This document shows positions 5,631 through 56,617 of a stretch of 64,000 nucleotides of DNA, one piece after another (the stretch's first letter is position 1; every line of letters begins with the position of its first letter). Made by a program: the position numbers and the translations under genes. The notes under the pieces were generated by a model. It searched no databases and was not told the DNA's origin. It worked only from the letters and a program-made list of their open reading frames with translations. The DNA comes from Sphyrna mokarran (taxonomy: Eukaryota): NCBI GenBank assembly GCA_024679065.1, contig JAGIQG010000016.1, positions 12,400,001 through 12,464,000 of the forward strand. The letters are read 5' to 3'.

Positions 5631-5666
5631 CTAATCCTTGTAATAATCTTTTGCATGTCGATAGTT
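5631..5666 (-). CDS. Micro-exon 21 (36 nt): ELSTCKRLLQGL
   Basis: aaatctgcactgcag|AACTATCGACATGCAAAAGATTATTACAAGGATTAG|gtgagt. Confidence 0.85.
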   Translation of the reverse strand, partial: NYRHAKDYYKD

Positions 5667-5976
5667 CTGCAGTGCAGATTTATTTTTTTATTATATAATT
5701 GAACTGCCTTTGTTTCTCAAAGTCAACAATTGATTCATCCATAAATGTTGCCTAATATTTGGCCATCACAAAGTAACGTCAGAACATGCGCACTAGTTTT
5801 GCATTTGCTTTGCACATATCGACTTCTATTTATCCAAAATAGCCCAAGACAATCCAGTTGCCAAACGACCTCGTTAAGTGTCAAGCATAACCGTCCTCTC
5901 AAAGAATATCAATAGGTCATTCATAAGATTTGAACGTCGTTGCTGTCGGTAGGATTGTAGTTTATATTTAGGTTAC

Positions 5977-6003
5977 CTTTTTCTTTGTCGGCCAACTTGT
6001 CCT
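5977..6003 (-). CDS. Micro-exon 20 (27 nt): EDKLADKEK
   Basis: gttgtttgctgcctaatag|AGGACAAGTTGGCCGACAAAGAAAAAG|gtaacc. Confidence 0.85.
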
Positions 6004-6370
6004 CTATTAGGCAGCAAACAACATATAAATAATGCAATGTAAATACAAGTTCGAAAGTACAAATTTATTTAACTGTGCCCCGATCTGAATCGTCAAGAAT
6101 CTTCTCAAGTGTTCTTTTAACGAATGTGGAATAACAGGTACCCTTTAGAGGAAATTTTGCAGATTAATAGACCAACATGAATTCATATATTTACATGTTA
6201 CTAGAATGTGTAAGTTAATGACTTATTTGTTTGGTCATTAAAAATGCAACGAATCATTGGAGATGTTCGCAGTCACATCAAATGGTTTCTATTTCTAAGA
6301 TAAAATATGTCAACAGAACACGTGTCTACAATTACGAAAGTTAGAGACATTGGCATTTCAAATGACTCAC

Positions 6371-6406
6371 CAAGTTCCATCAATGATTTTTCATACTTGG
6401 CAATTT
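6371..6406 (-). CDS. Micro-exon 19 (36 nt): EIAKYEKSLMEL
   Basis: attaaatttgatccag|AAATTGCCAAGTATGAAAAATCATTGATGGAACTTG|gtgagt. Tyr replaces the usual Cys. The peptide is visible in ORF 6273..6461. Confidence 0.8.
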
Positions 6407-6607
6407 CTGGATCAAATTTAATATAACGTTTTTTTTCACGTTCAATAGATTCTATTACCAAATGCTATGAAATTTGTTCGAAAAAAATAAAAGAAACACG
6501 AAAACGGACTGCTAGCTGCCTAGAACTTGAATAAAAGAAACAATTGAACAGAACAATTAATTCACTTATCAAAGGCAAGGCTACATTTTATGATACAGTA
6601 AATAGTG

Positions 6608-6850
6608 TCACAACACCAAGTTAAAGTCCAGCAGTTTTATTTGGCAGCACGAGCATTTGGAACACATTTTTTTTTTTCATCAGATGAATGCTGGATTGTT
6701 TCAAATGCTGAAAAATAAGTGTACTCGCCTGATGAAGGAACCGTGCTCCAAAAGTTACTGCCACCAAATAAACGTGTTGGATTTTAATCTGGTGCTGTGA
6801 GATTGCTCACTGTGGCTACACCAGTCCAACGCCTGCAGCTTCATTTCCTG
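6608..6850. mobile_element. Penelope-like element terminus arranged as an inverted repeat
   Basis: Arm tcacaacaccaagttaaagtccagcagttttatttggcagc (from 6608) is the imperfect reverse complement of the arm ending ...ccaaataaacgtgttggattttaatctggtgctgtga (6800). Contains CTGATGAAGG-stem-CCAAAAG. Confidence 0.65.
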
Positions 6851-7339
6851 ACGTTTCATGTTGGCCGCACAGCTGCATATTATCTAGGGTAGCGAGCAAT
6901 GTGCAATGCAATGCGACTTAGTCACGGATACTTACGACTTAAGAACGTCAAAAATAAGTTATACAAAGCTAAAACACTGCGCTGAATGTCAAAATGGAGT
7001 GCCAATGCGGCAGCAATATTTTCAATCAACTCAATTCTAAGAATGGCGGGCGAAGGGAATTTTGTCAGTCCTTAGCAGAATCTTCCGACTGCAACAGCCA
7101 GAACAGATTCTTTTCAAATTAAGCTGATCCTGTATGCTATGTGCTATGTTTTCAGCATTCTGAGAGAATTTTGACTGTATCCTTGCAGACATCAATTCCC
7201 AGCACAACAAGGCTAATGGTAATGCAGTCCAGCACAGTCTGTTAAAGAGGGAATAATTTATGTAAACTGCAAAAGCAAATATATACATTTGCAATGTTGA
7301 ATGTCTTGAAATTTCTTTGGCAGCTGAGCGCCATCACAA

Positions 7340-8660
7340 TCCGTTCATGTATCCTAAATAGTGGGGAAGGCAGAGGACGAAATTATTGGGGCATTGAGAG
7401 AAATATTTTAATCTTTACTGGTTACAGGGGAGGTCCAAGATGACTGGAGAATAGTCAGTGTGGTTCCGTCGTTTCAACAGGATGCCAAAGATTATCCAAG
7501 TTACCCAGTGTCCAGTTAGCGCGAAAAATATAAAAAAACAACCTTTTATTTATGGGTGAGCCTTTGGTCAAGAGTAAGTATATTATTGGAGATGATTCTT
7601 TGAGATAGGTTTTAATCATACGTGGAAATAAGTTGACATGTTAGCGAGAGGCGACAGGATTTTATGAGATGATGTCTTGCCTCAATATTTTCATTTTTTT
7701 TGACGAAGTGACGAAGACACTTGATGAGGGTAAGGCAGCGGATGTTGCCTCCATGAGCTTTGCCTTTTACAAAGTTCCTCATGGCAGACTGATACAGAAC
7801 GTGAAGTCGTCGTCTTGTTACAAAAGTTGCAGCCGACACAAAAGTTGTTGGAATAGTGAATGCTAATGAGGACCGAGGATAGTTCGAGATACAAATCAGT
7901 GGAGACTGGAGCACAGCAATGGAGATGGAGTTTTATCCGGGAAAATGCAGTTAATGCATTTTCATTATCTAATAGAGATGACGAATACACAGTAAATAAC
8001 AGAACCTTGAAGAGTATTGATAGACACAGGGATCTTAGCGTGCAGGCGCACAAGTCACTGAAACTGACAATACTGCTTGGGAAGATCGTCGAGAAGGCAT
8101 CCGGCATTCAGGCCTTCATTGGCCGGGATATGGAATTCAAAAAATGGCGATTCATCTTTCAAGTTTATAGAACCGCGCACCATGGTTGGAATGCAATGTT
8201 CAATTCTCGTCGTCACGCTACCATAATAATTTGAAGAGCTTGGAAAAGAAAAAAAGAGCTTTTTTTTCGTTGAGAAGGCATTTACTATGAAAAGACAGGG
8301 TGAAATTGGGTGTTTCTTACTGGAACGATGGAAGTGGAGGGCGGCCCAAAAGAAGTCTACAAGGCCGCGAAGGACATGAACAGAGTCGATACTCAGAACT
8401 TTTCCAAGATTGGAAGAGTAATTTATGGGGGGGAAGGAGGGGGGAGGGGGGTTGTGGAGCGTGGGCACCTGTAGCTTGCAGCCGCTGGAGTTCATGGGAG
8501 CAGGTACCATAGTAACTTATGAGGGGCATCTTGAGATCTAAAAGAACAGGATAGGAGTAAAGAGATACGGTCAGGGAAGGGCAGTAATTTTAGGTCATTC
8601 GGGTAGCATGGCCGGTGCGGGCTTGGATGGCCGAAGAGCTAATTCCCGTGTATTTTTATT
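7340..8660 (+). mobile_element. CR1 LINE remnant
   Basis: TGEVQDDWRIVSVVP, FFDEVTKTLDEGKAADVASMSFAFYKVPHGRL, YTVNNRTLKSIDRHRDL. CR1-type tail ggccgaagagct near 8630. Confidence 0.9.
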
Positions 8661-8814
8661 TTATTACTTGCTCTGATACTGTGGTACGCTAGAATTCAAC
8701 GTACGATTTTCTGAGTTTTGTTTTGGAACTGTTGTTTGGCATTGGGGTGGCCAAATGGGGTTTGTCAATGTTGTGCCGTTGTAACGGTGGCACAGAAGGC
8801 CTTCTGGGATGCTT

Positions 8815-9210
8815 TTTGATTTGATTTATTATTGTCACATGCAATAGTACACCGTCACGTGTATTGTTATTTTTGCACGCTATTAAGACAAAATAGGATA
8901 ATGAAGTAAAGTGGAGAGTGTGGAATGGCTACACTCATGGCTAGGAGTGGAGAAATATCAAATTCGTCTTAGAAAAGTACAATTAAAAGTCTGATGGAAG
9001 GAGGGAAGAAACTGTCCTTGAGTCGATTGGTCCGTGACTTGAGACTATTGTATCGTTTATTTTCCCCCGAAAAAAAAAGTTGAAAAACATATATCGATGG
9101 ATTATTAATTATGCTGGCTGATTTTTCTAAACAAGTGGAATTTGTAATAGAATCAATGGGTGAGAGGTTGTTCCGCGTGATGGATTGGGTTTCATAGATT
9201 TTACACATTT
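8815..9210 (-). mobile_element. Rex1/Babar-like LINE 3' end
   Basis: ORF 8969..9208 ends RYNSLKSRTNRLKDSFFPPSIRLL. Tail aataaatcaaatcaa on the minus strand. Confidence 0.75.
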
Positions 9211-9404
9211 TCTTTAAGCATTTTGAAGTTATACGGCTATCGCACGAGCATTTATTTGTAACTTTAGTTTTCCCTGGTGCCTTACAAAATCACGGATTAT
9301 TGCATTTTTTTTCGTGAACTCAATTCATATATTTTGCAGTAACGCTGACATTGACCAGCTCAATATTTCGAAGTTCAAAATATTGAATGTTTTACTCCAT
9401 ATAC

Positions 9405-9431
9405 CTTCGTTTTTGGTTTCCAACTTTGCTT
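9405..9431 (-). CDS. Micro-exon 18 (27 nt): EAKLETKNE
   Basis: ttttgttttattttcaatcag|AAGCAAAGTTGGAAACCAAAAACGAAG|gtatat. Confidence 0.85.
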
Positions 9432-9836
9432 CTGATTGAAAATAAAACAAAAAAATCCAGACAATGTAAATTGAACGCAAATCACTGGGAAGTTGGGGGG
9501 AGAGTGTAATTCTCTCATAAATACATTAATTTACCAAAATATTGCAGGATTTTTTCAATGAAAAATACGTTTTGACAACGATACGACAACACATTGACTG
9601 TAGTACTGCAATACCGTTTTTTTTTAATACATCTTCTGAAATCCTTGTGATGGATCTCCAGATTGTCGAACACATAAGTTTGTAACGTTTCCTATGTCTA
9701 CAAAATTGCTACGATACACTTAATAAGCTTAGAGGTATGTCAAAATGTTCCCGTAGCTTCGTACAAGTAGGTGGAGCACGAGCACGTTCACCTGTGAAAG
9801 ATGATATTTTTAGTAGAAGTGTTAATTGATACTCGC

Positions 9837-9872
9837 CTAACTCGTTCAACAACTGTTTGCACTTGGCTATTT
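9837..9872 (-). CDS. Micro-exon 17 (36 nt, GC donor): EIAKCKQLLNEL
   Basis: gatttacctgtacatag|AAATAGCCAAGTGCAAACAGTTGTTGAACGAGTTAG|gcgagt. The peptide is visible in ORF 9709..9891. Confidence 0.8.
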
Positions 9873-10349
9873 CTATGTACAGGTAAATCAAAGTTATGAT
9901 TAATTTGACAAGTCATTCGTTTAATTAGTTCATTAGCAGCGTAACATTTCAATGTGCTGAATGATTTACAAAACATATAGCTGTTAAAGTGTTTCTCATG
10001 CATGTATTAAGGACTTGAATGTCACAGAACCAACATAAGAGAAACCGTCGTTCAGTTGCCCAAAAACATTTTAAAAAATGTTATAGATTTACGTTATAGC
10101 CCATATGAAATAGAAAGGGGGGATCATGAGACAGTGAAACATCGTGGAGGCAGAATCAGATAAATAAACATGTTGCACATTGGGTACAGTGTTTAGTTGG
10201 ACAACACATAAGGCCTATTTCTTGCGGGCTACGGTGAGATCAAATGCCTCGAAGCCGTGAACCATGCATTCGACAGAAGCTATGTCTATACTTTAAGACA
10301 ATCAGTAATAAACCATATTTCTGTTAAACGGTTGGAGATAATGGATAAC

Positions 10350-11610
10350 ATCAACCTATGAATGCCCATGGACTAGGTAAGGTGTTGAGGATGGCCTTCT
10401 CAAGGGCAATTAAGGATTGGTAGGAGAAACTGATCCAATAACTGATCCTCATCTGATCAGACAAATAATATGAAGTAGCAAGGCTGAAAATCAGAAGAGA
10501 TTGAGCATGTGGCATCAAAGTGTGGAAGCAAATCAAAACCAGCAATCGATGGGAAAGGGCGTTTTGTCAGCAGCCCTGTCGCAGAGTTAGAATGCCATGC
10601 GAATTAGTTATTTTTGCAACTACTCCATTGGGGAAAAAAATGTTTCTATTATGTCACGATCTTGGAGAAGTCCACTTTGTAATCATCCAAATAAATGATT
10701 ACCGTGTATTCACTGTCCATATGAGAACTGAGGCGAACTCAAATAAAAATGTTGTTGTTGTTTTCTACATGGATTTCAGTAAGGCATGTGAAGTGTGTTA
10801 GGTAATACAGCAGTATACAGGTACACTGTAAAATTGGGCAGGAAAATGTCAGATGAAATTAAATATGAAGAAATGCAAATGATACAATTCCGTAGATGCA
10901 ATTCGGGGTTGGAGCTAAAAACAAATCAGAGCAATCAGGAGCATAGACAAATAGAGGACTGGGAATACAGGTGTGCAGATCCTTAAATGTGGCAGCACAG
11001 GTGGAAACATCGTGAAGAACACATATGGCATGTTCATCTTTATCGAAGGGGCACCGAGTATAAAAGTTGGCAAATTATGTTATAGTTGTATCAAGTATTG
11101 GTTCGGCCACAATTGGAATACTGCATCCATTTCTGCATCCATGCACAAAATAACTTGGACATTTTGTAGAGAGTGCAAAAAGGTTTACCAGGTTGATGGC
11201 TGGAATGGAGGGTTCTAAGGAGAGATTGACTATACTGGGATTGGTCTCCCTGGAAAGATGAGGACTTAAACGGCAAACTGATTGAAGTTTATATAGTTAG
11301 GGTGAGGTGCTTGAAGTTTTTTTTTGTTTTTCTAGAGCTTAAATGACAAGCAGAGGGGAACGTAATTTCAAGCTAACGAGTGAATGGCTCAGTTGAGATT
11401 TGCAGGCTTTTTTCAACGCAGAGAGTGAAGGCGGCTCAGAATGCAGTGCAATGTGAAGTGATTGAGACAGTTAAGATGGTCACATTTAAGACTTACCTGA
11501 TAGGCATATTTATAAACTTGGAATAGAGGGATGTACGATGATTGTTTATATAGTTAAACGTGGTTGGCACAGCTGCTCCTATGCTGTAGTGTTTTCTGTT
11601 ATTTGTTGGT
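10350..11610 (+). mobile_element. Old CR1 LINE remnant
   Basis: VVVFYMDFSKA, NIVKNTYGMFIFI and other CR1 RT C-terminal similarity. Heavily decayed. Confidence 0.75.
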
Positions 11611-12113
11611 TATGTTGTTCTTTCCTTGAAAACGGGGTCTCTGCATAGAAGAGGTCCAATATTTCATTAGTTAATTTGATATAGTTTAATTGTTCAGTGA
11701 AAATGCTTGCCCACAGAACTTAACATTTCCAGGTAAGTAACTGCAAATCTTAAAAGTATTTCGAGGTTGATCGGTGATTGCTCAAGACTAGCTTTTTAAC
11801 GGTTGAATCCTAGTTAAATTATGATAGGCGCAAGGTGCTTACATTTGCTGACAGACATCGAAATTCCTGTTCACTTCGGGACCGCAAGTCTAGCACCCAA
11901 ATTTGCAATTAATCACTTTTAAACGTTTGAAGAGGTAACATGCAGAGATGCATCAAATACTTGCTTTAGTTATAGATAAAGGACACATTTATGCCTTTGT
12001 GCAAGAGGTGGCTGAAAGTGGTTTGCAAAATCATTGATGAAACACTTTGAATAAGAATGGGTTAGGAATTCATTCTTATCTAATTCATACCATTGCATAT
12101 TTTACTTTGTTAC

Positions 12114-12140
12114 CTTTTTCGCATTCTTCCAGTTTTTCTT
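12114..12140 (-). CDS. Micro-exon 16 (27 nt): EEKLEECEK
   Basis: gtttctttgccaacag|AAGAAAAACTGGAAGAATGCGAAAAAG|gtaaca. Confidence 0.85.
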
Positions 12141-15100
12141 CTGTTGGCAAAGAAACATTTCCAAGCAATCACCATTTTCTCTTGAATGTCAGTTTAATTT
12201 CATACTTAGAATAATAACTATTATTTTCTTACATAAAGTTAATCTCCATAATTTCAATTTGATTCGGAGACAAAGAGAAAAAAAATCGAGTTGTTCGCCT
12301 CACTAATATCTGACGTCATAAAAAATCTTAATACGAATTTAGAAATTTCGAATCACAGTTTATTCCCAGTATTCACTATTGTTTACTGCACCTTTCGTGC
12401 AATGTCTGCTCTGCTGGGACAATGTCCACAATATATATTGGCATCGCACAGCAACTTCTGAGATGTGCACGCACAATACTTGTATAATTGAACGTGGTAA
12501 AAGATGAATGAAACACTTGTGGTCCAAAAAGCCAATGGCAACTGATTCAATATACGTATTGGCACGAACGCTGGTCAGTAAAACGCAACTGCCTTACAAG
12601 GAACTTTACACTGGCCTTCTTAGCTGATAAGGATCTGGCGCTATTGTTCAGGGAAAAGTTGCGAAACCTTCACCGCATCCTAAACTCGTTCCAAAGCACA
12701 GCCAAGACCATAAGTATCTTGCTAAATGATTATAGAAGCAGGTTTTCGGATTGATTGTTCAAATTGCCGTGCTGATGGTTGCTAATGTCTCTGTGATTTT
12801 TCAGTCACATTTGAAAGCCAACATTGAATATAATTCCTGAGAGCGTAAATGTTGCTTTATTAAACTAGAGTTATATATGTTCCTTGCTACTGTGGCCGCA
12901 TAATAACGGATCTCTTGTTCGACAGCCTTCCACACATGTTTACGTTGGATCCTAAGAGTAATTGTGCACCTTTGAATACGGACCCCTCATTTTTCTGGAA
13001 GAATAATGACAGTCATTTCAGTATCCTCGTCACATTTCTGAGTATTGGTCAGTTGTAGTAGTCAGCAAATATTGATTTCCTTTCTACTCCACACGATCTT
13101 ATTTGAACAATATGGATATGAACCGACCTGACTTTTTCACGAGATTAAAAACAAACAATTCTCACCAGTGATCAAAAGTTCCCACATGGTAAACTAATTT
13201 CACAGTTCAATGAACTCCGCCAATATTGCTAATATGTATAACATGTGGGAAACTCATTGTAGCGTAACGTTTGGTGCACGTGCCGCTAGCTAGTGTTGAC
13301 GGGAAAGTATGGATTTGGTGTACTCTGCTGGGAAAAAAAAATGATGCTGAACAGAATTCTACTCCAACTGCCCGCCGTGTTTTGTGGATGTCCGGTTTTG
13401 TATTGTCTAGATTAATTGCAAATATTTCAATTTGGACACTGCGGTAAGGGGATGTGTGCAATCATGCATTACGTTTGTTTGCGCTCCTCTCTCTACCTGT
13501 CATTGGGACGAGGCAAATTAGTGTTTTTTTTTGAAGAAGCATTTGTAGAACGCATTTAGGTTTCCGTGGTCGTACATCGTTTGCTTTGGCGACTGTCTTG
13601 TTTCTTCTAGGTCAACCCAACGAAATGTCGATTCTTGATTCGAAAGTGGGGAGAACGCGAAAAAAAATGTTATTCATGCATATTTTTCCTCACTAGAAAT
13701 AATTTGCACGATAACTGAATTCAAAGACCAGGAAATGCATGGACATTCCGACTGTACGCTGCACATTCACCATCTTTCATTGTCATAACCATTTTCTGGA
13801 AACAAAACTATTCTATATATGCTGCCTTGGTGCCTGTAAAATCTATTGTACCAAATACTTCAGTGCGATTTTTTTTTTTCAGATTCAGGTTTATCCAAAG
13901 CTAGTATGTTATCTCAAACTTGGCACTTAACTCCATATATTCATGAGGTTGTCTGGGCAGTGTCGGAATGCATGTATTGCCTTTGCAAATACTGATGCGG
14001 ATTCTGCTGTCGGGTTGCCTGGTTAGTTTTAAACGTTCACATATTTTTACCGCCTGTTTCACTTTGAGTTTGATATAACTTGCCGACTTTGCAGAACAAT
14101 TCGGTCTTGGTGTTTGCCCAATGAATTGGACGTGTACCCTGACATTGTTTCCAGAAATGAATAGCATGCATTGTGCAAAACGACCTAAAAGTATTCAATA
14201 TCTACTGCATCTTGGACAATTACTCCATTAGCAGTGATGATTGTGCAATGGACACGGCTTTTAATATGAGATAATACATCATGACATAGTTCTCCGATTA
14301 ACTCTGTAGAAACTGGAGATATCTTTCTTACGCTCTTCACGATTATGCGCGAGAGGTACAATAGATTGCCATCGAAATGCAATTTATTCCGATCTCGTGT
14401 AAAAACTGACTCCCCGCCCAACAATCAAGAAGTTAATTAACCACGTCTTCTTTTCTCCCTCTGTTTCCCATTTGTTTCAAATGTGCTGCTCATGGGAGAA
14501 AGTTATTTCTTGTACAACGTATGGAAAGGAAATTAGAGCTGTACGTATCAAAAGTAGGAAACATATTGTTTGATTTTTTTGTACAAGAAAAGCTTTTCAG
14601 GCTCGATAATATTTGCATAAGTACATCATTTTATGCCACAAGTAGTGCAATTTACGTCAAGACAAAATTGGCATGGCGAAATATTATATTGATAATAGAG
14701 AATTTGTTCTAATTCACTGACGACAGGCTTATTAAAATGTCATGATTGCGATGCACTTTAAAGTTCAAGATTACGTGATGTTAGTTTATGGCTTAGGAAA
14801 TTATAATTTTATTGAATACAACACCAGAATTTGATCAATGCATTACGTCTGGATACATTAACTGTAACAAAAGGCTCAGGCAGACATAATAAAGAGCAAT
14901 GGTCTTCTTAAAAAAAAATCCAAGTGTTACCAAACCAGGACACAAGCAATTTCAGCAAGCGCTTTTTTTAAAGAAACATCATCACAATTCTGCAGTGTCA
15001 GTGATCTGGCTGAGTCCAATTCTAGGCATTGTAAAACACAGAAATTTAAGGGATAGCACGTTAATAGTAGATTGTGATAAAAAGTGTGATTAGTTGTGCA

Positions 15101-16145: not shown

Positions 16146-16181
16146 CGGTTTCTTTTAAAGCAGTTTTACATGTGTATAACT
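16146..16181 (-). CDS. Micro-exon 15 (36 nt): ELYTCKTALKET
   Basis: cttgtttctgtgtttgcgatctag|AGTTATACACATGTAAAACTGCTTTAAAAGAAACCG|gtatgt. Confidence 0.85.
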
Positions 16182-16812: not shown

Positions 16813-17520
16813 TATTAAGTTAATGGAAGGACTCTTGGTAGTGTGGATGAGCAGAAATCTCGGTGTACATGTGCATAGATTCCTGAAAGCTGCATCCAGG
16901 TTGATAAGGTTGTTAAGGAGGCGTACGTTGTGTTGTTATCTTTTATTGGTAGGGGGATTGAATTTCGGAGCCTTGAGATCATGTTGCAGCTGTACAAAAC
17001 TCTGGTGAGGCGAACTTGGAGAATTGCGTACAGTTCTGGTCGCCGTTTTATCAGAAAAATGTGGAAGAGTCGGAAGGAGTGCAGAGGAAATTTACCAAGA
17101 TGTTGTCTGGTATAATGGGAAGGTCTTATGAGGAAAGACTGATGGATTTGAGGTTGTTTTCGTTAGAGAGGAAAACGTTAAGAGGTGATGTAATTGAGTC
17201 ACACAAGATGATCAGAGGATTTGATAGGGTGGACATTGAGAGCCTTTTTCCTTGGATGGTGATGGCTAAAACGAGGGGACATAGATTTAAATTGAGGGGT
17301 GATAAATATCGGACGGATGTCAGAGGTAGGTTCTTTACTCAGAGTGTTGTAAGAGTGTGAAATGCTCTGTTTGCAGCACTTGTGGACTCGCCAAATTTAA
17401 GAACAATTAAAATGGTGATTGGATAGGCATATGGACAATATTGGAATAGTTTAAGGGTCATTAAACTGGTTCCACTGTTCAACGCAGTATCGATGGCCGA
17501 AGGGCCTCTTCTGCCAAGAC
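16813..17520 (+). mobile_element. CR1 LINE 3' portion
   Basis: FIGRGIEFRSLEIMLQLYKTLVR, CVQFWSP and TRGHRFKL..RFFTQ. Tail ggccgaagggcct. Confidence 0.92.
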
Positions 17521-23387: not shown

Positions 23388-23414
23388 CGTTTTCTTTGTC
23401 TTTCAGTTTTTCTT
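23388..23414 (-). CDS. Micro-exon 14 (27 nt): EEKLKDKEN
   Basis: aaatatgtcttcag|AAGAAAAACTGAAAGACAAAGAAAACG|gtaaca. Confidence 0.85.
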
Positions 23415-23786: not shown

Positions 23787-23822
23787 CTAAATCGTTTGAC
23801 AAGATTCGGCACGTGGATAAAT
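23787..23822 (-). CDS. Micro-exon 13 (36 nt): DLSTCRILSNDL
   Basis: ctttccttcccccaaatgatccag|ATTTATCCACGTGCCGAATCTTGTCAAACGATTTAG|gtgagt. Confidence 0.87.
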   Translation of the reverse strand: MYPRAESCQTI

Positions 23823-26193: not shown

Positions 26194-26220
26194 CTTCATT
26201 AATTTCACGCATCTCTTCCA
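26194..26220 (-). CDS. Micro-exon 12 (27 nt): VEEMREINE
   Basis: catcaaccaatttcaacag|TGGAAGAGATGCGTGAAATTAATGAAG|gtatgt. Confidence 0.83.
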
Positions 26221-42470: not shown

Positions 42471-42725
42471 TTTTTTTCATCCTTTGTCATACATTTATGC
42501 GAAATTATTTGAAAACATTGTTTTTGGAAAGTAAATTGAAATTTTAAAATCAAAGTGCTTAAATTGGTATCTGAAGTAACGAATTTAGATTTTGATTTTT
42601 TTTTTGGTTCAAGTTGTAGTATACGATTTCAAGGTGGGACCGGTATCTTTATTTTGCTCTGAATAAGTCGTGGCGTTATCACACTGGAATCGGTTTTATA
42701 GCTTTTGATTTCTTAAATGGCAGAG

Positions 42726-43775
42726 GTTTCAAAGTGATCCAAAACTTAAACTTCCGCAGTTAGATTTCAAAATTTCTCACCTACAAATGTTGCAATTAAG
42801 AATCAATACGCATTGGTGATTATGATTTTTTTTTATGTTTTTCGATTTCGAGACAAAATTAATTCGTTGTGTTCGAAGCCGAATGCATTTTTTGGGTGTG
42901 AGTTGTTTTTAAGTAGGTGACTCCTGAGTAACAAGTCTAGCTGATTGATGAGTTCAAGACTTTTTTTTCCCTGAACTTAGTATTATTTGAGACCTGCAGA
43001 TTTTAACGCAGTCAGATATTCACACAGTTACCTTTGAATTAAAATGAATGATTATACTTAAGCGTTACAGTTTCTGAGATTTATTTGATTGAATATATTG
43101 AATGCATAGAATAACCGACTGATATAAATTGAAGTCACCCAAAATCTAAAAGTGTTAATATATTTAAATGTTGTTGACAAATTAAGGCTCAGAAAAAGGG
43201 AGGTGGTATAGCTTTTGCATGTCAGAGAGGAATAACTTGAAACTTATTCCTAGTTCACGATGCTGCTGTTTGAATCTAGGATAATTTTACAAAGTAATGT
43301 TTGTTTGTTGTGTGACTTCTCCATGTTGAATGAGTGTCATCTACGTCAATGCACAAGTTCACGTGCAAAGCATTTGATTCAATATAACTACATGCCAATA
43401 AGTTGGGAGCTAATTTTCTGTGAGAATATAAAGACTCTGCAGAACGCCAACGACATTACAACAGATACTGGGATTTTCCAACTATTTAATTGTGCAATTT
43501 GACATCAGTCAAAAAGCTGACAAGCGGGACAAACACACCATTGATGCAAACCACTCTATTCAGAAATACAATTCTACTGTAACAGATGAAATGATGGATT
43601 ATTTTTTTTCTCTACAATTTTCTCAACCAGTCGAGAATCATTTGAATTAGTTCTGACTTGTACTTTGGGTACATTGTGCTAATTGTATCATCAATCAACA
43701 TACCGTATGCATATTTGTAGGTGAGAAATTTTGAAATCTAACTGCGGAAGTTTAAGTTTTGGATCACTTTGAAAC
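42726..43775. repeat. Perfect 63-bp inverted repeat (42726-42788 / 43713-43775) with 924-bp spacer
   Basis: gtttcaaagtgatccaaaacttaaacttccgcagttagatttcaaaatttctcacctacaaat and its exact reverse complement. Confidence 0.92.
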
Positions 43776-45369
43776 ATCACGGACGTTGGAGTTTTAAACC
43801 TCCGGCTTCAGTACTTTTGGTTCATAACCCTCGTAAACCCAAATTTAAACTTTATTTCGTTTTCTCATCAGTACCAAGATTTATAATTATCCAGCCCATA
43901 AGACTGAACCTAATATATTGTAAACATTACTAATTTGAACAAAGTTTTAACTGGAAAAGTTTGCAGAGAATGTGAACCAGTTGTATTGGATTTCACTGAA
44001 ATACATTTACCTGAAAGGCGTCTCTCTCAGCTTCGGGAGTATTATACCTTTTTCATTTAACATAGAGGTAGTTAAATCAAGAAGTGACAAATGTGGCGCA
44101 ATAATGATTTTCTGATTTAAAGCGAACGGAGGAAGGAACAAATTAATGATTTAGCAACTGCTAGTGTAACTGTGTTCATGGATAATACTTCTGATTTGAT
44201 GAAACCGGGCACTTATACTCAAATACTACCCAGGTTTGTTAAAACAGTTCGAATTTTACAATGTTAATTAGACATCCAGATACGGACATTACAAAACTAG
44301 ATGCTGCTGCTTACTTTACAAAATGTGAAATGAAACGAGAAAACAATGCAACAATGCATTTGAAAATGCTGTTAAAACACAAAAAAATTATAATTGCAAA
44401 TACAACGTTTCCTACATGTTAATACGTTTTTTTTGACTGGGTTCTGATACAAAGTGCATGGGAAAGAGATTAGCCTTTGTCTACGATCCATTTCGCTGTA
44501 CGCTCCAGAATCAAGATGAATATCTGAGGAGAGAGAAATAATGCCTTCAATAATCATTTAACAAAAAACATGGCAATAGTTGATTTTATTTGCCTATTTT
44601 GGCTGAGTGTAAGAATGCTGGAAATTTAGGTCAAATTATGCATCGAAAACATTTGCAGGTTGTGAATAACGTCTAGTCTGGGCGCTGTGATCTGAAGCTT
44701 TCTGTCTTAGTCAGATCAGGGATATTGTTTACACTAACTCAGGCAGCGTGGTTCCGACTGTTACGGCGGCTTTGTACGGTACATAGAAAATTAACAACTC
44801 ATGATGGCATTCTTCAAAAGTATGTTTGCTGCATGTTCAAGCGATGTGATCGGTGTATGGTGAGACAGTCGACTGGATGTTAAAGAATCTTCTGAAGAGG
44901 GTGGAGAATTGCGGATCAAAAAGGGAAGTAATTATTTGTTTGGCAGCAATAGCTTTAAGAGAACAGTTATCACAACAAGAATTGTACCCTGAAGGATACT
45001 ACAGAAACGAGAAGATAAATTCTACATCGAGAATATTTCTTGGTCAAAGTGTTCCTAAAATTGGTAATGTCTATTTTTATTCAAGTTTATCGAGTTGATA
45101 TTCAGTTAAAGTTAAGTGGTAGTGTAAGAGTTAAAGATCAGTTGAGAGTTGATGTGTTTCATTTGTGCGTGCTTGCGTTTATTCTTTAACTGTTAAATGA
45201 ATAAATAATTGATTTACTGTATTTGTTTGACTCGTTAAATTGGGATGCTTGAAAACGTTTGAACTAAAGTTGTATGAGAATACCAATTCAAAACATCATT
45301 GCAGCATCTGCTCAATATTTCCAAATTCGTCATTATTTACATGCTTTCCAAAATAAAATTGGAAGTTGG

Positions 45370-46170: not shown

Positions 46171-46737
46171 TACAGTAATAAAAAATAACACACTTCATAG
46201 AATACAGTTTAAATTGCTTCTTTCTGAGGCGACGACGAATGGAGATCTTCGTGACACACAACTGCTTTCACATTGCCACGAAACGCGTGTTATATTGTTT
46301 TCATGTCTGGCTAGATGCGTGACGGCATCATTTCCGTAAACAATAAAGAGCAAAAGTAAACGTTTTAATATAGAGACACATTATGGATTTCTAACTAATT
46401 GAACGTGATGTCTTAGGGAATACTTCAAATTTAGCCATTGCATTGGTTTACAGAGGACGTTGTGGCAAGCTTTATTGCAGCATGAAAGGGCCGACTGATC
46501 GTGTTTTCTTGAGCATATCAAACGAAACTTTATTTGAAAATGTTGTTACGAAATCATGGACATTTTTGCAGAGAAATCGGACAGTAACTTGGGAAGAGCC
46601 TGATTTGCAATTGCCTTGATGTAGTGCGTCCTCTTTAGTCGAAGATCCGTCTCATAACAATCTTATGCAAGTTAAATTTGACACGCATCTCGAAGTATGC
46701 ACTTTTAAATTGAAAACGAAACATTAAATCCTCTCAC

Positions 46738-46773
46738 TTAATGTTTTGTTCGCAGCGTTGCAGTCGTCCAACT
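46738..46773 (-). CDS. Micro-exon 7 (36 nt): ELDDCNAANKTL
   Basis: gatttcttcacttgcag|AGTTGGACGACTGCAACGCTGCGAACAAAACATTAA|gtgaga. Close paralogue of exon 3. Confidence 0.85.
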   Translation of the reverse strand, partial: SWTTATLRTKH

Positions 46774-47189
46774 CTGCAAGTGAAGAAATCACACACATGT
46801 TTTATGACTACAACTTTTTATTTACTGCAGTATCTGATGTGTGCTAGTTAGAAAGTTATGTATTGTAATACTATTGTACCCAAATTACTGTTGGCAAGAA
46901 ATCATATTGATGAATCGCAGATGAAATAAAATGGGGCAATTTCCTAAACTTTGCCTGTTATTCCCAATTATTAACTGGAAGAAAAACGCTGGTGAAAATG
47001 AAGTTATTGAAACATAGCCAAATAATATGCAGTACCACTTAAAATAAAAGAGAGAAAAAATACATGTCATATATGCAGGTTGTTGACTACGGTATTTATG
47101 TTTGAGTTTGAAGAGCGGTTGATGGGTTGTGTTTTAGTCGACCAATTTGCTGAATTGATAGACCAGGAACATGAGATGTTATCATTTAC

Positions 47190-47216
47190 CCGTTTCTTTA
47201 TCTTTCAACTTCTCCG
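47190..47216 (-). CDS. Micro-exon 6 (27 nt): AEKLKDKET
   Basis: ttttttcctttcaaaag|CGGAGAAGTTGAAAGATAAAGAAACGG|gtaaat. Confidence 0.85.
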
Positions 47217-49554
47217 CTTTTGAAAGGAAAAAAAAACATTCCATTTAAAATATTCTTAAGTATGTTCAAGTATTGTCACATAGGACAATTCAAATTCATC
47301 CAATTCTCAATATTTTATTGGCAATAGATTGATGTAGAAGTCAGAAATCTAAAGCATTCTTTGCATAAAATCTGCCATTAGGACATTGCCAGAGGTTTCT
47401 TTTTAACAATACTTCGAAAATCATATAATCGATTAAATTCAGCAAAGTTTTGCAAAATTCACTTTAACTAATGGATTGTATGTATTGGGAAGAAATAAGT
47501 ACGTGGATTTAAGTTGACTAACAGGTAAACTTGGATTGATGAGACTTTTTTTTTCATATTATAGAATTGGATAAGAGGATGTTTCATGTGGAATGACATG
47601 ATATTGTGGATAAATGTTTATTTCTCCAGCAGCATGAATGAAGTCAGACAAAATTTCTCGTTCTGTTCGTTATACCAAATTTTAATGAGAATAGTGCCAC
47701 ATTGTTCTCTAATGGGGCATGAATAACGTAAATATATTTTAATGGTTTGGATGAAGATGACCAATATGTGCCAGCTACTTTCGCGGTTTGCCTGAAATCT
47801 AATTGATGAAGGGGATGGACGGATCCATAAAATAGATAACAGAAGGAAACTGAGTAAGCGAACATTCCCAAGATGAGGTGAAAGGTCAGAAAATGTGAAT
47901 ATATCAAGGTCGGCATGAAGGACAACAGAGGCATTCTCCTTTAATTAAGGGAGAACTCTGTATTGTGAAGATGTATTGGCACAGAATCACAAAACGTTGA
48001 TTTATACACATGACTACTAATTTTATTTTAAAAAATCATTCATGCAGTGTAAGACTTAATGTCCAGGCCGCCATTGATAGTCGTTGCATACTCGCTTGAA
48101 AATATGATAATGAACTCTAACTGTGATCAACGGCATGACATATGGTATAGATTATCTGAGAGGATTTGTTGCAGCGAACGTGACTTTTTTTTTTCTTTTT
48201 CAAATTCTATTGTGAATTCCTTGGAGGGAAGTCACTTTGATACTACCTTCTGCCGACTGCCCACATGACTTGAGGTGACAATATCCAGGCACTTGAAATG
48301 TGCTACGGTATGACTCCTCGTGAATTAATATAATGCAACGTGTAGGTGGTATACACTGTTGCCACCAATGGCTATTAATTGAAGGACCGGAAGTTTGCAG
48401 ACTGGTTAGAAATCAAACATGTTTGATTTTTATTTGATGTTGCTAAGCCTATTAAATGGTGTCGGTATTCTAGTCTTCCATGAAAGTGATGAGTATTACA
48501 TCACGTGGATATTTGAGACGGTGTGGTGACTTTTGAAATCACGGGATTCAGGCAATTTTACCAATTTCTCTACCCAGAGTAAATATATTGCTTGGCCAGT
48601 TTGGGTTTGTTTAATACTAATCCAATGTTATTAATACTGGGTGATTTACCTTTGGTAGCACCAGTAATTATCAAGTGTGCTGATGTTATCACTTGTTATA
48701 AAAACGCAGCGCAAACGTTAGCTGCCACGTGCAATCCAAGGTCTGTTTATTACGCATTTTTCGATGACTTGAAGTTGACCAGAGATTATATTGTGCCTTT
48801 GGACAAACATACCTCTGATGGTCAAATTTATGAAGTTTGGACCTAGATAAGATGCTGTTCTGGCTATATTATATTTTTGCATGTACTACCTATTTCACAG
48901 TTTCACCAATTCTTGCACAAACCTTCAAGTGTTTATACGAAAACTCTTCAGAATCGGTGGAACTGTGATTGCTGTTGCACATTGCTGCTGCCATGTGGTT
49001 CGGACAACTTTGCCCCACAACCAGCTTTGCTTGCAGCATTTCTTTTCTAATTGACAGGGCTTTTCAAAAGCGTTGCTTCAAATAAAGCTCATGTTTCTTC
49101 GTGTTTTGAGGCACATATAAGCCAAACCTGGCAAGGGTGACACATTTCTTTATCTAAAGTGAAAGTGTGAGCCAGAGGGATTAAATCAAGTGTTATCCTT
49201 TGATACAAATGTCATTTGGGTTCCAAATATCTTTTAAAATAACACATCCTCCATGTAATGTATCTGTGCAGGAATATCTAGCTTTTTAAACTCACTGACA
49301 ATGCATTTTTTTAAACAATGAGATAAATTCATGCTGTGGTTGCTTGCAAGCAATTTGAAATGCGAAAATCAGTGCGGTGCTTTGCAGATAGTTATTAAAT
49401 ATGAAATCAAGTTATTTTGTCTTATTAGCAAGTTTGAATGACATTGTATATATGGAATTTTTTCCAATTTCCGAATGGATAGCAGAAGGGATGTTCTATT
49501 TTGGCAGGAGTTTATATGCAAAGTTAACTGCATAAAAGACATTCTCTCTGAATG

Positions 49555-49770
49555 TCATGAAATCATAAAAACCCCACAGTGCAAAAAAGAAGACGATTCG
49601 GCTCTTTGACTCTGCACCAAACACAATTCCAGTCCCAATCCCCATTCCCCCAGATATTTATCCACTAATTTTTCTAATGTAAGCAACCCGGAACTCTAAG
49701 TGACAACCTAGTATGGCCAATTAAATAAACTCGCACATCATTGGACTATGGGTGGAACCTGGAGCACGCG
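49555..49770 (-). mobile_element. HE1-like SINE remnant
   Basis: cataaaaaccccacagtgcaaaaaagaagacgattcggc...gtatggccaat...cgcacatcattggactatgggtggaacctggagcac. Confidence 0.65.
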
Positions 49771-50109
49771 TTAATATACAATATATTCTCATTCCTCTCA
49801 GAAAGTAGTTAGTATGGGAAATTATTGGCACAAAATTCGTATCAGCCACCATCTCATTAAGGGGCAGATGACGGGTTTCTCGGAAATTAAAGCTGGAACG
49901 GATGGAAACAATGGAGTGATTTTATTACAGCAAACCACCAAATGTGCTCATAATAATACTTTGAAAATCTTTTGCGAAAATTGATTGCTGGAGATCTGGG
50001 ACGTGATAGCTTGCATTCCTAAAATCTCTACGCAAACTTCAACTTATCACGTCACCTCTATTGCATAAAAAAGATAAATTTCTTCCGAGGGAGGACATCG
50101 TTTTCTCAC

Positions 50110-50145
50110 CTAAATCATTCACCAAATTCTGGCATGCGGATAATT
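50110..50145 (-). CDS. Micro-exon 5 (36 nt): ELSACQNLVNDL
   Basis: tttatttttggttgagcag|AATTATCCGCATGCCAGAATTTGGTGAATGATTTAG|gtgaga. Confidence 0.87.
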
Positions 50146-51551
50146 CTGCTCAACCAAAAATAAAAACATCACATTTTTCGAACTTCTGTTGATATTTTGA
50201 TTCTTTTTTTAGAATTGGTCTTAAGAAGTATGTATGTACATCGTGGTATGCAGTCGTCGTTTTGCAATCGAACAATTGCTGAACATCTTTAATTGTTTTC
50301 AGCGGTTGGTGACATAGACTATTATTGATTGTTGACTGTCCACTGTTTTTATAAATAGCCACAACACACTTTTTAATGAAATTGGGACTGCAGTCATTCG
50401 ACACAGTGACAATGAACGAATGAAAATATATTTCTGTCTCAGAAGCGTGCACTAACTGATGAGATATGCCCAGTTATGGCGTGCAATTGGTATCAGTTAA
50501 ACCTGTTTTTGGAAGGACATTTAGAATGCACCACATTTTTTTCAGTAGGCATGAATTGAATTTGGATAGGTCTGATCTTCTCCTTCCCTGCAAATCGCCC
50601 ATGTCAGCAAAGAAGCATTAAACAACGTTTGCAGACTGCAAGACTTCTAACATATTAACTTATCCTTATTTTAACATTGCTGTGATCAGCAATTTCTGTT
50701 CTACCGGTCGAAGCGCTTCCGATTGTGTTTGATTAATTCAATTCTGACTAAAAAAAAATGAACATCTCATACTTACTGCATTGTGTTCAGCGAACGATCA
50801 ACCCTTCATCACATTGAAGCCGGAATTTAGTTTTAACTGTGACAAATGCATTACACGCGTGGAGAGCAAATTCATTTTATAAACTTGCTGCCAACGACTG
50901 CAGACCACGCATAGCTAAGTCAAAGTTCACTGTAATGCGAGTGTTCTGAATGGTTTGTCATTCATTAACTTATTTAGTCTCATTACGATGCATGCAGTGT
51001 TCACCAGGTGCCGAGCTGCACCATTTACGTTTTGATCAAATGAACAACATTTTCTGTAAAACGTAACCAACGATGTCAGGAGAATGACCGCCTTATGAAA
51101 CCAGTTTTCCTTTTAGAATGACAAGTTCGGTTTGAATCAAAGTAAATCAATTACCCAGGTGGCATAATTATCCTAATACGTGAAACTTTTCGAACAGTTC
51201 ATCCAGGTAATTCAAGGGCATCAGTTCGTAACAGTGCCACCTGCTGTCCAAGTGGATGATTTAGTATGATTCTTTCACCCTCCGCAATACCATCATTTGA
51301 AACGTGCAATGAAAACAAATTTCATAGATCAGTCTTCAAACTTATTCTTGATAATTAGCGTCAGGTATATTGTCAGATATTTTCCTCGGGCCAAATCATG
51401 TTATTTGAGCATTTCTGCATTGTTATCACAAACGTATTTTTACCATGGATATTACTGCTATCAGTGTTGCCGATTGCATCTACTTCGATGTTAATTCAAT
51501 TATTTTAATTTTAGCTAAATTCCTGAAATCAACAAAGAGAAAAACACATAC

Positions 51552-51578
51552 CTCGTTTTAATTCATCTAATGATTCAG
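51552..51578 (-). CDS. Micro-exon 4 (27 nt): AESLDELKR
   Basis: ctttcaattaaatccaccag|CTGAATCATTAGATGAATTAAAACGAG|gtatgt. Confidence 0.8.
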
Positions 51579-52974
51579 CTGGTGGATTTAATTGAAAGAA
51601 ACCTGAGTTTTTAACAAGAGCACAATATTTATCTGCATGATCCTAATTACTCATCTGATGAAAATGATGCACTGAGGAGGCACTATTCCATCCAGTAAGT
51701 AAGTAAAGTATGTGTGCTCTAATGTATTGTAACAGTTTGCATATTTGCGAAAATGGCAAATATATGCAACAGCGAACACTGCGAATGCATATTGTATACT
51801 ACAATAATGAATCTTAAGTTTCCAAATTTGTCTTATAAAATGAACTTTCAAAATGAAGGATGCACTTACATTATCGCATTTTGTTATTAAATATTAGATG
51901 GGGACAAGTTTGTTTTTAATTACATATTATTACAAGAAAAAAATAAATTGTGAATCAAAAATGCCGAGTACAAACACGCTGGTACATTTTATTCAGAACG
52001 TATCGCCTGAATCTACAGAGTGAATACTAATAAGAGTGCGACCAACATGATATAAAGTTCATTATCGATTAAATTATTGGGAAATTTCAATGACAAAATA
52101 CTTAACTCTGTTTCACTTTGCGACGATGGTACTTGACCAAACATTGTTTGCATTTGCGTTCAATCCCGAATATTTTCTTTGCATTTACTATTGCTTATCC
52201 TTATGGGTTATAGCATATAAAAATATCATATATGAGACAATTGTATAGAGGCACTTAATAAATAAACTTCGATGCTCCTTGAATAGTCAGCATTTGAATT
52301 CCAGGAACTAGATGCACAATCTTTACTGACGCTAATTAGCACCGGTGCATTCCAAAAAAAAAGAAACGGATTGATGGTCTGCTGTTACATAGGACAAGAC
52401 ATGGAGTATTTTCAATTGAGGATTAGAGAAAAAAAAAGCTGCTCACAGAATTTCAGGTTCGGGCACATTATATAATTTCTATTCGAATCCGTGTAAAATG
52501 TAGAATCAGGACATAAGCTCATATATCGGATGGTTCTGGGTTCGTGTGGAATGCATTGCATGCAAACTAAAATTTGCCGACCGTTCTATGGCTGCTTTAT
52601 CGGTTAGGTCAGAATTTCAAATGTGAGCCAATAAATGAAATATGCGATATAATATCACAACTTTTAACAATTTTGATTTTGTTAATACATATTACAGCAT
52701 AAATGCATTGTTAAACTTCAATTTAATCTCAAATCGGACTGCAATATTTCATTTAGGTCTTGCATGCACCGTGGATTTTCTGTGTTCAACCATTGGAAAT
52801 GTGTATTCTTCCTCGGTTTACTTTCTCTCAGAGCTTCCCATGAAGCATTTTTGCAGGCTGCCTCCGCTCTTCCCCTTTTTGGCAAATCTTGCCTCCCTTT
52901 GTCTCTCCATATCTCTATGACACGCAAAGAGTTCAGGTAAAATTCTCACGTAAGCCTTGCTCATTCCTGACACA

Positions 52975-53200
52975 AAGGAACATAGGCACAAAAACGAAAC
53001 AAAAAGGTACAGATATAAGCTATTCGGGTCCTCAAGACTGTTCTTCAATTCTACATTGCACTGGCTTATTCAAAGTCGTAACACCATACGTCCGAGATTT
53101 CTCCATGCTCCTAACATCTTTGCAGTTAAGGAATCTATCTATTTCATGTTTTAACATATTCAGGGTTGTTTCCTTCACAGCTTTCTCTGTTTTCCAACGA
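52975..53200 (-). mobile_element. CR1 3' end remnant
   Basis: KAVKETTLNMLKHEIDRFLN in ORF 53032..53238. Confidence 0.7.
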
Positions 53201-53371
53201 CTCATATCCCCCGAGTGATGAGCATCCTCATCATCCAATAATGTAATAGCCTGCCTCGCATACTAACTGTAGCCACAGGCAAATGACAGATCGTGTAAAC
53301 AAGCAATCCCAACAATGCTCTTTATGCTTGAACAATTCAAAACATGAAGGAAAAATGCATTTTCCTCTTAC

Positions 53372-53407
53372 CACATTCTTTATTCGCATAGTTGCATCTC
53401 TCCAACT
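53372..53407 (-). CDS. Micro-exon 3 (36 nt): ELERCNYANKEC
   Basis: gattcattacag|AGTTGGAGAGATGCAACTATGCGAATAAAGAATGTG|gtaaga. ELxxC motif. Confidence 0.85.
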
Positions 53408-56590: not shown

Positions 56591-56617
56591 CTTCTACTTT
56601 TTCCTTCAATTTCGCTT
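56591..56617 (-). CDS. Micro-exon 2 (27 nt): EAKLKEKVE
   Basis: cttttctcactcacag|AAGCGAAATTGAAGGAAAAAGTAGAAG|gtaact. Homologous to the other 27-nt exons. Confidence 0.85.

Follow-up and report, generated by a model that had tools for sequence, protein, structure and literature searches.

Guinea pig enterophilins combine an extended leucine zipper with a B30.2 domain in the absence of Ig or RING domains, and enterophilin is a soluble cytosolic protein of differentiated enterocytes. The coil of TRIM proteins is antiparallel. In butyrophilins (BTN/BTNL, ERMAP), heptad repeats are followed by a C-terminal B30.2 domain, coiled-coil dimerisation adjoins that domain, and the heptad tails, like those of BG antigens, are cytoplasmic (PMC4046983, PMC10665462). 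According to PMC4046983, chicken BG antigens and zipper protein encode a cytoplasmic coiled coil in many tiny exons (13-36 exons of 21 (24) nt) that vary in number and are alternatively spliced; the soluble tail regulates actin-myosin, IgV and TM regions are present, and no B30.2 domain is described there. Enterophilin-1/SNX1 is mentioned in PMC13749957. Hv1 has an interchain disulfide at Cys249 in a cytoplasmic coiled-coil dimer (PMC4969798).

The 64-kb window, i.e. the whole stretch of Sphyrna mokarran DNA analysed here, lies in the middle of a ~800-kb minus-strand gene according to our predicted exon model. This gene shares with butyrophilins the order of heptad repeats and B30.2, but no IgV, IgC or TM exon was found in the searched region, about 230 heptads stand against a few, a Cys ladder is present and the B30.2 domain falls in a separate clade (100/100). 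The principle is that of BG with another unit, namely about 164 exons of 27/36 nt plus B30.2. Enterophilins are likened to it by architecture alone (extended zipper and B30.2, no Ig/RING); the shark rod is far longer, carries Cys rungs and belongs to another lineage. TRIM-B30.2 proteins (TRIM39, TRIM58, A33-like) share B30.2 homology, whereas no RING or B-box was found in the shark locus or its homologues, and the microexon-built rod is predicted to be parallel. Hv1 shows that a cytoplasmic coiled coil can carry a disulfide, a mechanistic analogy only, with one Cys versus about 45 rungs in an unrelated protein.

Microexons and heptad register within the window

Twenty phase-1 microexons, ten of 36 nt and ten of 27 nt in strict alternation on the minus strand, were identified in the window (Table 1) and read as 210 aa with 0 stops. 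Every coordinate given in the preliminary description corresponds to a minus-strand exon with AG...GT/GC bounds. Leave-one-out scores of the nine 36-nt seeds were 16.6-41.4, compared with 1.6 for the next candidate and -2.1 for the best plus-strand control, and the tenth 36-nt exon was recovered unseeded with a score of 23.5. For the 27-nt exons (n=10) the leave-one-out scores were 11.9-33.3, the next candidate scored -0.1 and the best plus-strand control 11.3.

Table 1. Predicted exons in the window (window positions) and the terminal exon of the gene model.
Feature	Position	Strand
Candidate 30-nt microexon, weaker score	57326..57355	-
27-nt phase-1 microexon	56591..56617	-
36-nt microexon; Cys codon 5 (d) and Cys codon 12 (d); Asn codon 9 (a)	53372..53407	-
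27-nt microexon	51552..51578	-
36-nt microexon, Cys5	50110..50145	-
27-nt microexon	47190..47216	-
36-nt microexon, Cys5; N-K-T, Asn at core a position	46738..46773	-
27-nt microexon	37582..37608	-
36-nt microexon, Cys5	33825..33860	-
27-nt microexon	33219..33245	-
36-nt microexon, Cys5; not among seeds	28239..28274	-
27-nt microexon	26194..26220	-
36-nt microexon, Cys5	23787..23822	-
27-nt microexon	23388..23414	-
36-nt microexon, Cys5	16146..16181	-
27-nt microexon; additional Cys codon 7 (d)	12114..12140	-
36-nt microexon, Cys5, GC donor	9837..9872	-
27-nt microexon	9405..9431	-
36-nt microexon, Tyr at codon 5	6371..6406	-
27-nt microexon	5977..6003	-
36-nt microexon, Cys5	5631..5666	-
Terminal B30.2/PRY-SPRY exon, 172 aa then TAG	C668:11,926,115-11,925,595 (L075:6115-5595)	-

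The exon calls bear out the earlier claim that codon 5 is Cys in nine of the ten 36-nt exons and Tyr in the remaining one. Codon-5 Cys occurs in 13/205 (minus strand) and 10/217 (plus strand) of the open AG-36-GT/GC candidates, and the nominal P of 2e-11 for the enrichment overstates independence, because the ten 36-nt exons are duplicates. The placement of Cys at heptad d, including two extra Cys, also held: all 11 in-window Cys (residues 14, 21, 35, 56, 77, 98, 119, 140, 154, 161 and 203, multiples of 7) occupy d. Seven registers were tried, and the one with Cys at d has L/I/V/M/F at 25/30 a positions and 10/19 non-Cys d positions, and charged residues at 38/60 e/g positions; the hydrophobic period of the in-window sequence peaks at 3.50. 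A register with Leu at d was rejected, its a positions being hydrophobic in only 3/30. The register check proposed in the preliminary description thus puts the Cys in the core, and none of the observations it had named as contradicting its reading (Cys on the surface, Cys not conserved in orthologues, a monomeric or non-helical protein) was encountered. One pair of 36- and 27-nt exons equals three heptads. Outside the window the 21-residue period is interrupted by 27-27-27 runs and 15-nt exons, and 24/57 Cys spacings are exactly 21.

Extent of the predicted gene and its B30.2 relatives

The predicted gene model comprises about 164 microexons and ~1,600 aa (27 nt, n=95; 36 nt, n=55; 21 nt, n=4), about 40 exons having been added and three weak candidates removed by eye. 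There is no stop across the 164 exons, and all 160 listed exons have AG/GT or GC bounds. Upstream of the window, microexons continue to at least 12.65 Mb of C668, with candidates to 12.729 Mb; downstream, about 100 further microexons reach 11.930 Mb, and the terminal exon, a divergent B30.2/PRY-SPRY, lies 474 kb downstream. It matches PF00622 (E 1e-16), while the Pfam PRY model gave no match on this divergent exon. A PDB search with the B30.2 sequence gave TRIM58 as the best match (E 2e-22); BTN2/BTN3 and TRIM structures also matched. This is the one SPRY exon on the array strand, situated at the array end and preceded by heptad-repeat small exons as in the butyrophilin layout, and the linking stretch includes seven exons in collinear order with catshark XP_038668997. 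Two early ideas were dropped: a C-type lectin neck (CD23/CD209-like), given that C668 has no PF00059 match and B30.2 ends the gene, and a Tetherin/PLVAP relationship, abandoned after the discovery of the B30.2 exon.

The gene belongs to a chondrichthyan B30.2 clade with at least 7 genes in the S. mokarran genome. Eleven chondrichthyan/Logan rows form their own clade (100/100), apart from Callorhinchus BTN and TRIMs, in a midpoint-rooted tree with long branches whose rows were picked by a profile of the clade itself. The relatives are automatically named TRIM39-like or A33-like, and no description of the clade was found in literature search listings that cover few subscription journals. Word-index protein searches matched only a partial catshark model and two Logan fragments. 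Among the multi-isoform RefSeq homologues P0204-P0211, the five tested have no hydrophobic stretch at the N-terminus, whereas the models P0213 (skate) and P0121 (chimaera) start with a ~13-residue one; the P-E/A-E junctions of the latter two would fit intron read-through. The best match of P0213 in the skate's own genome (8.56 Mb) is a longer array whose 5' end lies beyond the 70 kb examined.

Selection on the ladder cysteine and the dimer model

Cys5 is present in 43/45 ladder 36-nt exons, the exceptions being one Ser and one Tyr. Codon positions 1 and 2 are 98% fixed and position 3 is 62% fixed (TGC 28, TGT 15); the entropy of codon 5 is 0.31 bits versus 2.22 for codon 12, the other d position, and the a-position Leu is less invariant than Cys5 (37 L, 7 I, 1 F). 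Tandem copies with 18% intron divergence give a dN/dS of 0.33 and retain core Cys in 25/26 cases (neutral P about 0.02, the copies not being independent), while a surface-position Cys of one 27-nt exon is kept in 4/6 copies only. In a paralogue, codon 5 is Leu in 7/10 hand-picked 36-nt exons, and it is mostly Leu toward both ends of the window gene. At the level of the sequence, these patterns support conservation of Cys5 by protein-level selection.

The same L-x-x-C motif is found in the chimaera homologue XP_042192744, in which 12/17 Cys have a hydrophobe at -3 (background 0.23). The dimer and trimer modelling suggested in the preliminary description was carried out as a dimer of a fragment of this homologue only, and to that extent it agrees with parallel Cys-Cys' contacts. 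Two copies of residues 392-500 scored 0.46 (best control 0.00, pLDDT 85) in a predicted parallel, in-register dimer, with at least 98% of contacts shared between runs. Residues 402, 444, 465 and 477 each contact their own counterpart on the partner chain. This mark was attained by 21/30 solved microbial homodimers and 0/23 monomers, and in eukaryotes by 17/29 homodimers (animals 7/16; 1/7 where no older relative had been solved) and 0/30 monomers; coiled coils may attain it because the predictor has memorised them.

Cellular location, alternative readings and significance

The extracellular location proposed earlier was not supported, in view of the B30.2 end, sequons at chance level and the lack of a convincing signal or TM exon. 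The N-K-T sequon cited in its favour does exist, but its Asn occupies core position a, and 5 sequons were counted in the entire model versus 6.1 +/- 2.3 in shuffles. Over as much as 464 kb upstream, the searches turned up no convincing exon for a signal peptide, a TM segment, an Ig domain or a RING. They returned only weak signal-peptide/TM candidates, e.g. at +416 kb; another weak candidate, at +328.9 kb, is a hydrophilic ATG exon. Ig domains gave no Pfam match on 100 upstream frames, and IgV/IgC profiles gave none over C668 11.92-12.864 Mb (as a positive control the IgV profile matched 27 proteins; 47 long frames at 12.804-12.864 Mb were screened by custom profiles only). The upstream searches found no RING/B-box at the locus, and five clade members are SPRY/PRY only in Pfam. 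By about +432 kb there is an opposite-strand neighbouring paralogue. With no first coding exon located, the topology is read by analogy: heptad microexons followed by B30.2 form the cytoplasmic layout of butyrophilin/BG, which points to a rod that is probably intracellular and cross-linkable and not an extracellular fibre.

A secreted or luminal rod, in which a signal peptide is spliced directly to the heptad exons of a permanently disulfide-zipped stalk with B30.2 heads, is nevertheless suggested by several features. Stalk-and-head proteins of angiopoietin-like or collectin-like type are comparable, secreted B30.2 proteins exist, an oxidising compartment is the simplest setting in which to use many paired d-Cys, and the N-termini of P0213 and P0121 are hydrophobic; all exons being phase 1, a phase-1 leader exon, the phase of the BTN leader, could also join. 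We consider this unlikely, given that no convincing leader exon was found on the minus strand between +240 and +464 kb, and that the best-looking nearby leader, a strong-looking plus-strand candidate at +439.2 kb, was dismissed, being the polypyrimidine tract that belongs to a decayed 21-nt exon. Moreover, 11/93 open intron tails of the window gene are similarly hydrophobic, which would suit read-through at the P0213 and P0121 junctions, and P0121 has 2 sequons versus 9.5 expected, an expectation inflated by its Thr-rich insert. It is very improbable that the locus, instead of encoding one expressed protein, is a repeat array in decay or a set of separate genes. Public annotation is indeed limited to an incomplete catshark model whose N-terminus derives from a repeat, and no RNA record was listed for the terminal exon, which counts neither way; but the uninterrupted frame, the intact splice bounds, the dN/dS, the single SPRY exon at the array end and the annotation of the chimaera homologue as one 1,697-aa protein all argue against it.

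The Cys might instead be a small core residue for close helix packing, its thiol unused and its conservation a product of packing and of shared origin through duplication. In favour of this, Ser, Ala or Lys frequently occupy the remaining d positions, the protein probably sits in a reducing environment and every ladder exon derives from duplication; yet Ser and Ala swap freely at codon 12, also d, codon 5 is more invariant than the a-position Leu with two exceptions in 45, and the motif is common to the shark gene and the chimaera, so we hold this to be rather unlikely. A three-chain coil with Cys3 d layers that bind or sense Zn, Cu or heavy metals appears more doubtful still. By the a/e/g composition rule, Leu/Ile at a, charged e/g and an occasional Asn at a fit a dimer, which would give two thiols per layer in layers 21 residues apart, although g is hydrophobic in 4/9 in-window units. 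M(Cys)3 sites in designed trimers, reported in PMC10299331, speak for such a coil, and BTN juxtamembrane coils, modelled as dimers in PMC10665462, against it.

On balance, we lean towards a cytosol-facing, parallel two-chain coiled-coil rod, B30.2-tipped and with latent, oxidation-dependent interchain disulfide rungs. One giant gene, presumably spliced into a single mRNA, would yield a rod of about 1,600 aa, up to ~240 nm long with all exons used, either soluble or held by an N-terminal anchor. Over about 1,200 residues Cys would have replaced Leu at the first d of each unit, so that each Cys would face the equivalent Cys of the partner chain. The cytosol is reducing and rarely supports stable disulfides; there the Cys would fill the core as small side chains in a d layer that is otherwise weak (Ser/Ala/Lys), and oxidation, as in an oxidative burst or terminal differentiation, could join them across the chains, one disulfide rung after another, and so fix the dimer in its register.

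The multigene B30.2 family is common to sharks, rays, skates and a chimaera, and annotation largely misses it or misnames it as TRIM39-like; it is missed because its exons of 15-45 nt are spread over hundreds of kb. We tentatively raise the possibility of an undescribed RING-less, Ig-less rod-plus-B30.2 family in cartilaginous fishes, of which this member could be a ~240-nm splice-tunable ruler with about 45 evenly spaced, oxidation-zipped thiol pairs, keeping B30.2 sensor heads at a fixed distance or hardening to a fibre, and possibly guarding a weak core against retained urea. With about 164 exons versus 13-36 in BG, the gene is an extreme form of the heptad-microexon design of butyrophilin/BG, and it provides a natural, selected case of periodic d-position cysteines, to our knowledge so far mainly a protein-design device. 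It also bears on the shuffling of B30.2 between scaffolds of TRIM-like and BTN-like type early in jawed-vertebrate history.

Microexons, heptad register and terminal domain

In the window, which spans 12,400,001-12,464,000 of contig C668 in a 2.77-Gb genome, a generic splice-site scan was followed by position-weight models scored on a leave-one-out basis. On the minus strand these picked out exactly ten exons of 36 nt and ten of 27 nt, with background scores far off; the two sizes strictly alternate, all are of phase 1-1, and together they give 210 aa of open frame with no stop. Codon 5 is Cys in nine of the ten 36-nt exons (background candidates, 13/205 and 10/217), exactly as described in the preliminary description. 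All 11 window Cys stand at multiples of 7 and, among all seven registers tested, the proposed one with Cys at d was the best supported, with large hydrophobes at a in 25/30 and charged residues at e/g in 38/60, and a heptad period of 3.50. The Asn of the N-K-T sequon in exon 46738-46773 and that of the sister exon 53372-53407 both occupy core a, where Asn is a dimer-specifying feature.

A four-exon (42-residue) pattern, in which two 36-nt types alternate with two 27-nt types, can also be observed at window 5631-56617. Four microexons have GC-AG donors (window 9837-9872; outside it -16,090, +97,747 and +181,889, signed positions being contig position minus 12,400,000). LINE-like pieces, from the 3' end, lie in the window introns together with two inverted-repeat elements whose arms measure 193 nt and 66 nt, at 16936-17398, 57837-58447, 55070-55940 and 42723-43778.

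Upstream the array reaches at least +250 kb, with candidates as far as +328.6 kb; downstream it extends to -469.5 kb and ends in a B30.2 exon (see table) whose best solved relatives are TRIM58, TRIM21 and BTN2/3. Among database proteins the nearest is XP_038668997, a partial catshark model (71% in B30.2). The roughly 60 residues ahead of its B30.2 match the last seven microexons in order, so that array and B30.2 are linked by evidence outside our exon model. That model counts 164 microexons, of which 95 measure 27 nt, 55 measure 36 nt and 14 have other lengths; some 40 of them were entered by eye, and 3 candidates were removed in the same way. It encodes 1,623 aa without a stop, with 58 Cys, Glu at 18%, Lys at 17% and a net charge of -86, which at 1.485 A per residue would make a rod of about 241 nm; the ladder spans about 1,220 residues and 54 Cys. 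Between -475 and +5 kb a score of 15 is exceeded by 130 candidates on the minus strand and 15 on the plus strand, and a score of 22 by 79 and 0, so a few weak model exons are probably false. A mitochondrial ATP synthase subunit f fragment (PF10206, E 3e-9), probably a processed pseudogene, lies in an intron at 6721-7104 (minus) of L041, a stretch of contig C668.

Conservation of the cysteine and the B30.2 clade

From +160 to -380 kb there are 45 exons of 36 nt; 43 of them carry Cys at codon 5 (TGC 28, TGT 15), one Tyr and one Ser. The first two bases of this codon are 98% fixed, the third 62%, and its entropy of 0.31 bits compares with 0.77 at the a-position Leu/Ile and 2.0-2.8 elsewhere. Downstream of the window, at C668 12.053-12.386 Mb, a 55-75-kb block holding about 12-15 exons has undergone tandem segmental duplication five to six times, and some copies are without certain exons or have a 27-nt exon cut to 15 nt via a new donor. 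The copies give pN 0.086, pS 0.231, intron divergence 0.184 and dN/dS 0.33. The core Cys was retained in 25/26 copies (neutral P about 0.02, the copies being non-independent), whereas the b-like Cys of a duplicated 27-nt exon was retained in only 4/6. Against a universal rule, 14 of the 58 model Cys lie outside codon 5 of 36-nt exons, some of them off d, the b-like one included. At either end of the gene Leu predominates at codon 5. In the 8.56-Mb paralogue, 7 of 10 hand-picked exons have Leu there and none has Cys, which indicates that a core Leu gave way to Cys.

Searching 1.84 billion representatives with a profile built on the divergent B30.2 identified coiled-coil + SPRY proteins in which a Pfam scan found no RING, B-box or Ig. 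They group with three copies from the S. mokarran genome in a single clade (100/100; 40 rows, midpoint-rooted and so carrying no claim of ancestry), apart from BTNs and TRIMs. The genome holds at least seven clade members, six of them on C668. At C1548 91-113 Mb there is a very large conventional SPRY/B30.2 exon cluster, with most of the 150 matches listed.

Terminal exon, further clade members in the S. mokarran genome, and homologues
Feature	Location or accession	Strand	Description
Terminal exon	C668:11,926,115-11,925,595	minus	phase 1, 172-aa B30.2 domain, PF00622 E 1e-16
Clade member	C668 8.558 Mb	minus	B30.2; own 27/36-nt microexon array, no Cys ladder in 70 kb read
Clade member	C668 11.338 Mb	plus	divergent B30.2
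Clade member	C668 11.879 Mb	plus	divergent B30.2
Clade member	C668 13.716 Mb	plus	divergent B30.2
Clade member	C668 14.320 Mb	plus	divergent B30.2
Clade member	C1548 101.418 Mb	minus	divergent B30.2, inside the conventional SPRY cluster
Narcine	XP_069775385		coiled coil + SPRY; profile search
Scyliorhinus	XP_038672308		coiled coil + SPRY; profile search
Callorhinchus	XP_042191567		coiled coil + SPRY; profile search
Callorhinchus (chimaera)	XP_042192744		1,697 aa, auto-named nuclear-pore anchor-like; profile search
Cetorhinus	XP_078422387		coiled coil + SPRY; profile search
Leucoraja	XP_055510696		obtained as a cluster member; outside the Pfam scan

RefSeq isoforms of three homologues vary by 9-residue blocks, as expected for skipping of 27-nt exons. 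In chimaera XP_042192744 a hydrophobe stands at -3 for 12/17 coil Cys and at +4 for 16/17; the motif is patchy in shorter homologues (4/6, 0/3, 0/2, 2/5). The homologues point to a cartilaginous fish, most likely a shark, as the source of the DNA.

Cellular location and oligomeric state

The extracellular or surface location previously proposed was not borne out. The N-K-T sequon, taken as weakly consistent with a secreted or surface location, is present, but its Asn lies in the core and sequons of the exon model are at chance level (5 against 6.1 +/- 2.3 expected). No Ig, RING or B-box was found in C668 11.92-12.864 Mb, and the upstream search for a leader or TM exon gave no convincing candidate. 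By +432 kb the microexons of a paralogue in head-to-head orientation have begun, leaving limited room for a missed exon. These are 21-nt, one-heptad, BG-sized phase-1 microexons on the plus strand of C668 12.832-12.866 Mb (stretches L097-L101), two of them with Cys at codon 5, and 27-nt exons are also found in stretches L102 and L103; the run probably forms the 5' portion of the gene that has its end at 13.716 Mb. An apparent leader at C668:12,839,216-12,839,300 (plus; L098, +439.2 kb) proved false, being the polypyrimidine tract of a decayed 21-nt exon, a warning for automated gene models of the clade. Two homologue models begin hydrophobic, which counts against a cytosolic product. However, 11/93 open intron tails of the gene are equally hydrophobic, T-rich tails mimicking leaders, and the commonest read-through junctions, T/P/A/S-E, recur at coil entry in both models, as intron read-through would give. 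The heptad repeats ahead of B30.2 in butyrophilins (PMC4046983, PMC10665462) and the chicken BG coil, built from many small exons (PMC4046983), are cytoplasmic, and a cytosolic product is favoured.

When residues 392-500 of the chimaera protein were modelled in two copies, the prediction was a parallel dimer in register, each of the four Cys touching its twin (score 0.46 against 0.00 for the best of 3 controls, pLDDT 85, >=98% contact agreement). The score mark was reached by 21/30 microbial homodimers and 0/23 monomers and, in eukaryotes, by 17/29 homodimers (animals 7/16; 1/7 without a solved relative) and 0/30 monomers. The predicted Cys-Cys' contacts are those of a homologue fragment. The model supports dimerisation, with the dimer as the only modelled state and with a coiled coil able to pass from the predictor's memory.

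Possible function of the ladder

We lean modestly towards a parallel dimer in the cytosol. Its d-Cys pairs would form part of the core in the reduced state and, once oxidised, would lock together as a ladder of disulfides that steadies a rod with weak remaining d positions; the B30.2 heads would be the binding end. According to the Hodges laboratory, d-position disulfides reportedly suit two-stranded coils, with little strain. For a cytoplasmic coiled coil, Hv1 Cys249 offers a one-rung precedent (PMC4969798). That the ladder aids against urea is speculation.

The Cys might instead be an inert small core residue; this is rather unlikely, codon 5 being more invariant than the a-position Leu/Ile. 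A secreted disulfide-zipped stalk, for which the hydrophobic homologue starts could be cited, is unlikely beside the sequon count and the BTN/BG analogy. Cys3 metal layers in a trimer (PMC10299331) are quite improbable, the occasional core-a Asn fitting a dimer. That the array is non-expressed is hardly credible next to a dN/dS of 0.33 and the lack of stops in the model.

The preferred cytosolic dimer resembles enterophilin and the BG-tail/BTN intracellular module in its way of working; the gene differs from BTN in having no Ig, from TRIM in having no RING/B-box, and from BG in its exon unit and in having B30.2. No description of a rod + B30.2 family was found in the literature searched, subscription journals being mostly outside its coverage. 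For the B30.2 role, the BG zipper protein and the heads of TRIM and BTN proteins suggest by analogy two leads, scaffolding of the cytoskeleton and innate sensing. The Cys ladder by itself is a modest structural feature; yet it is selected, recurs in a chimaera, and is found in a giant, mostly unannotated gene family.
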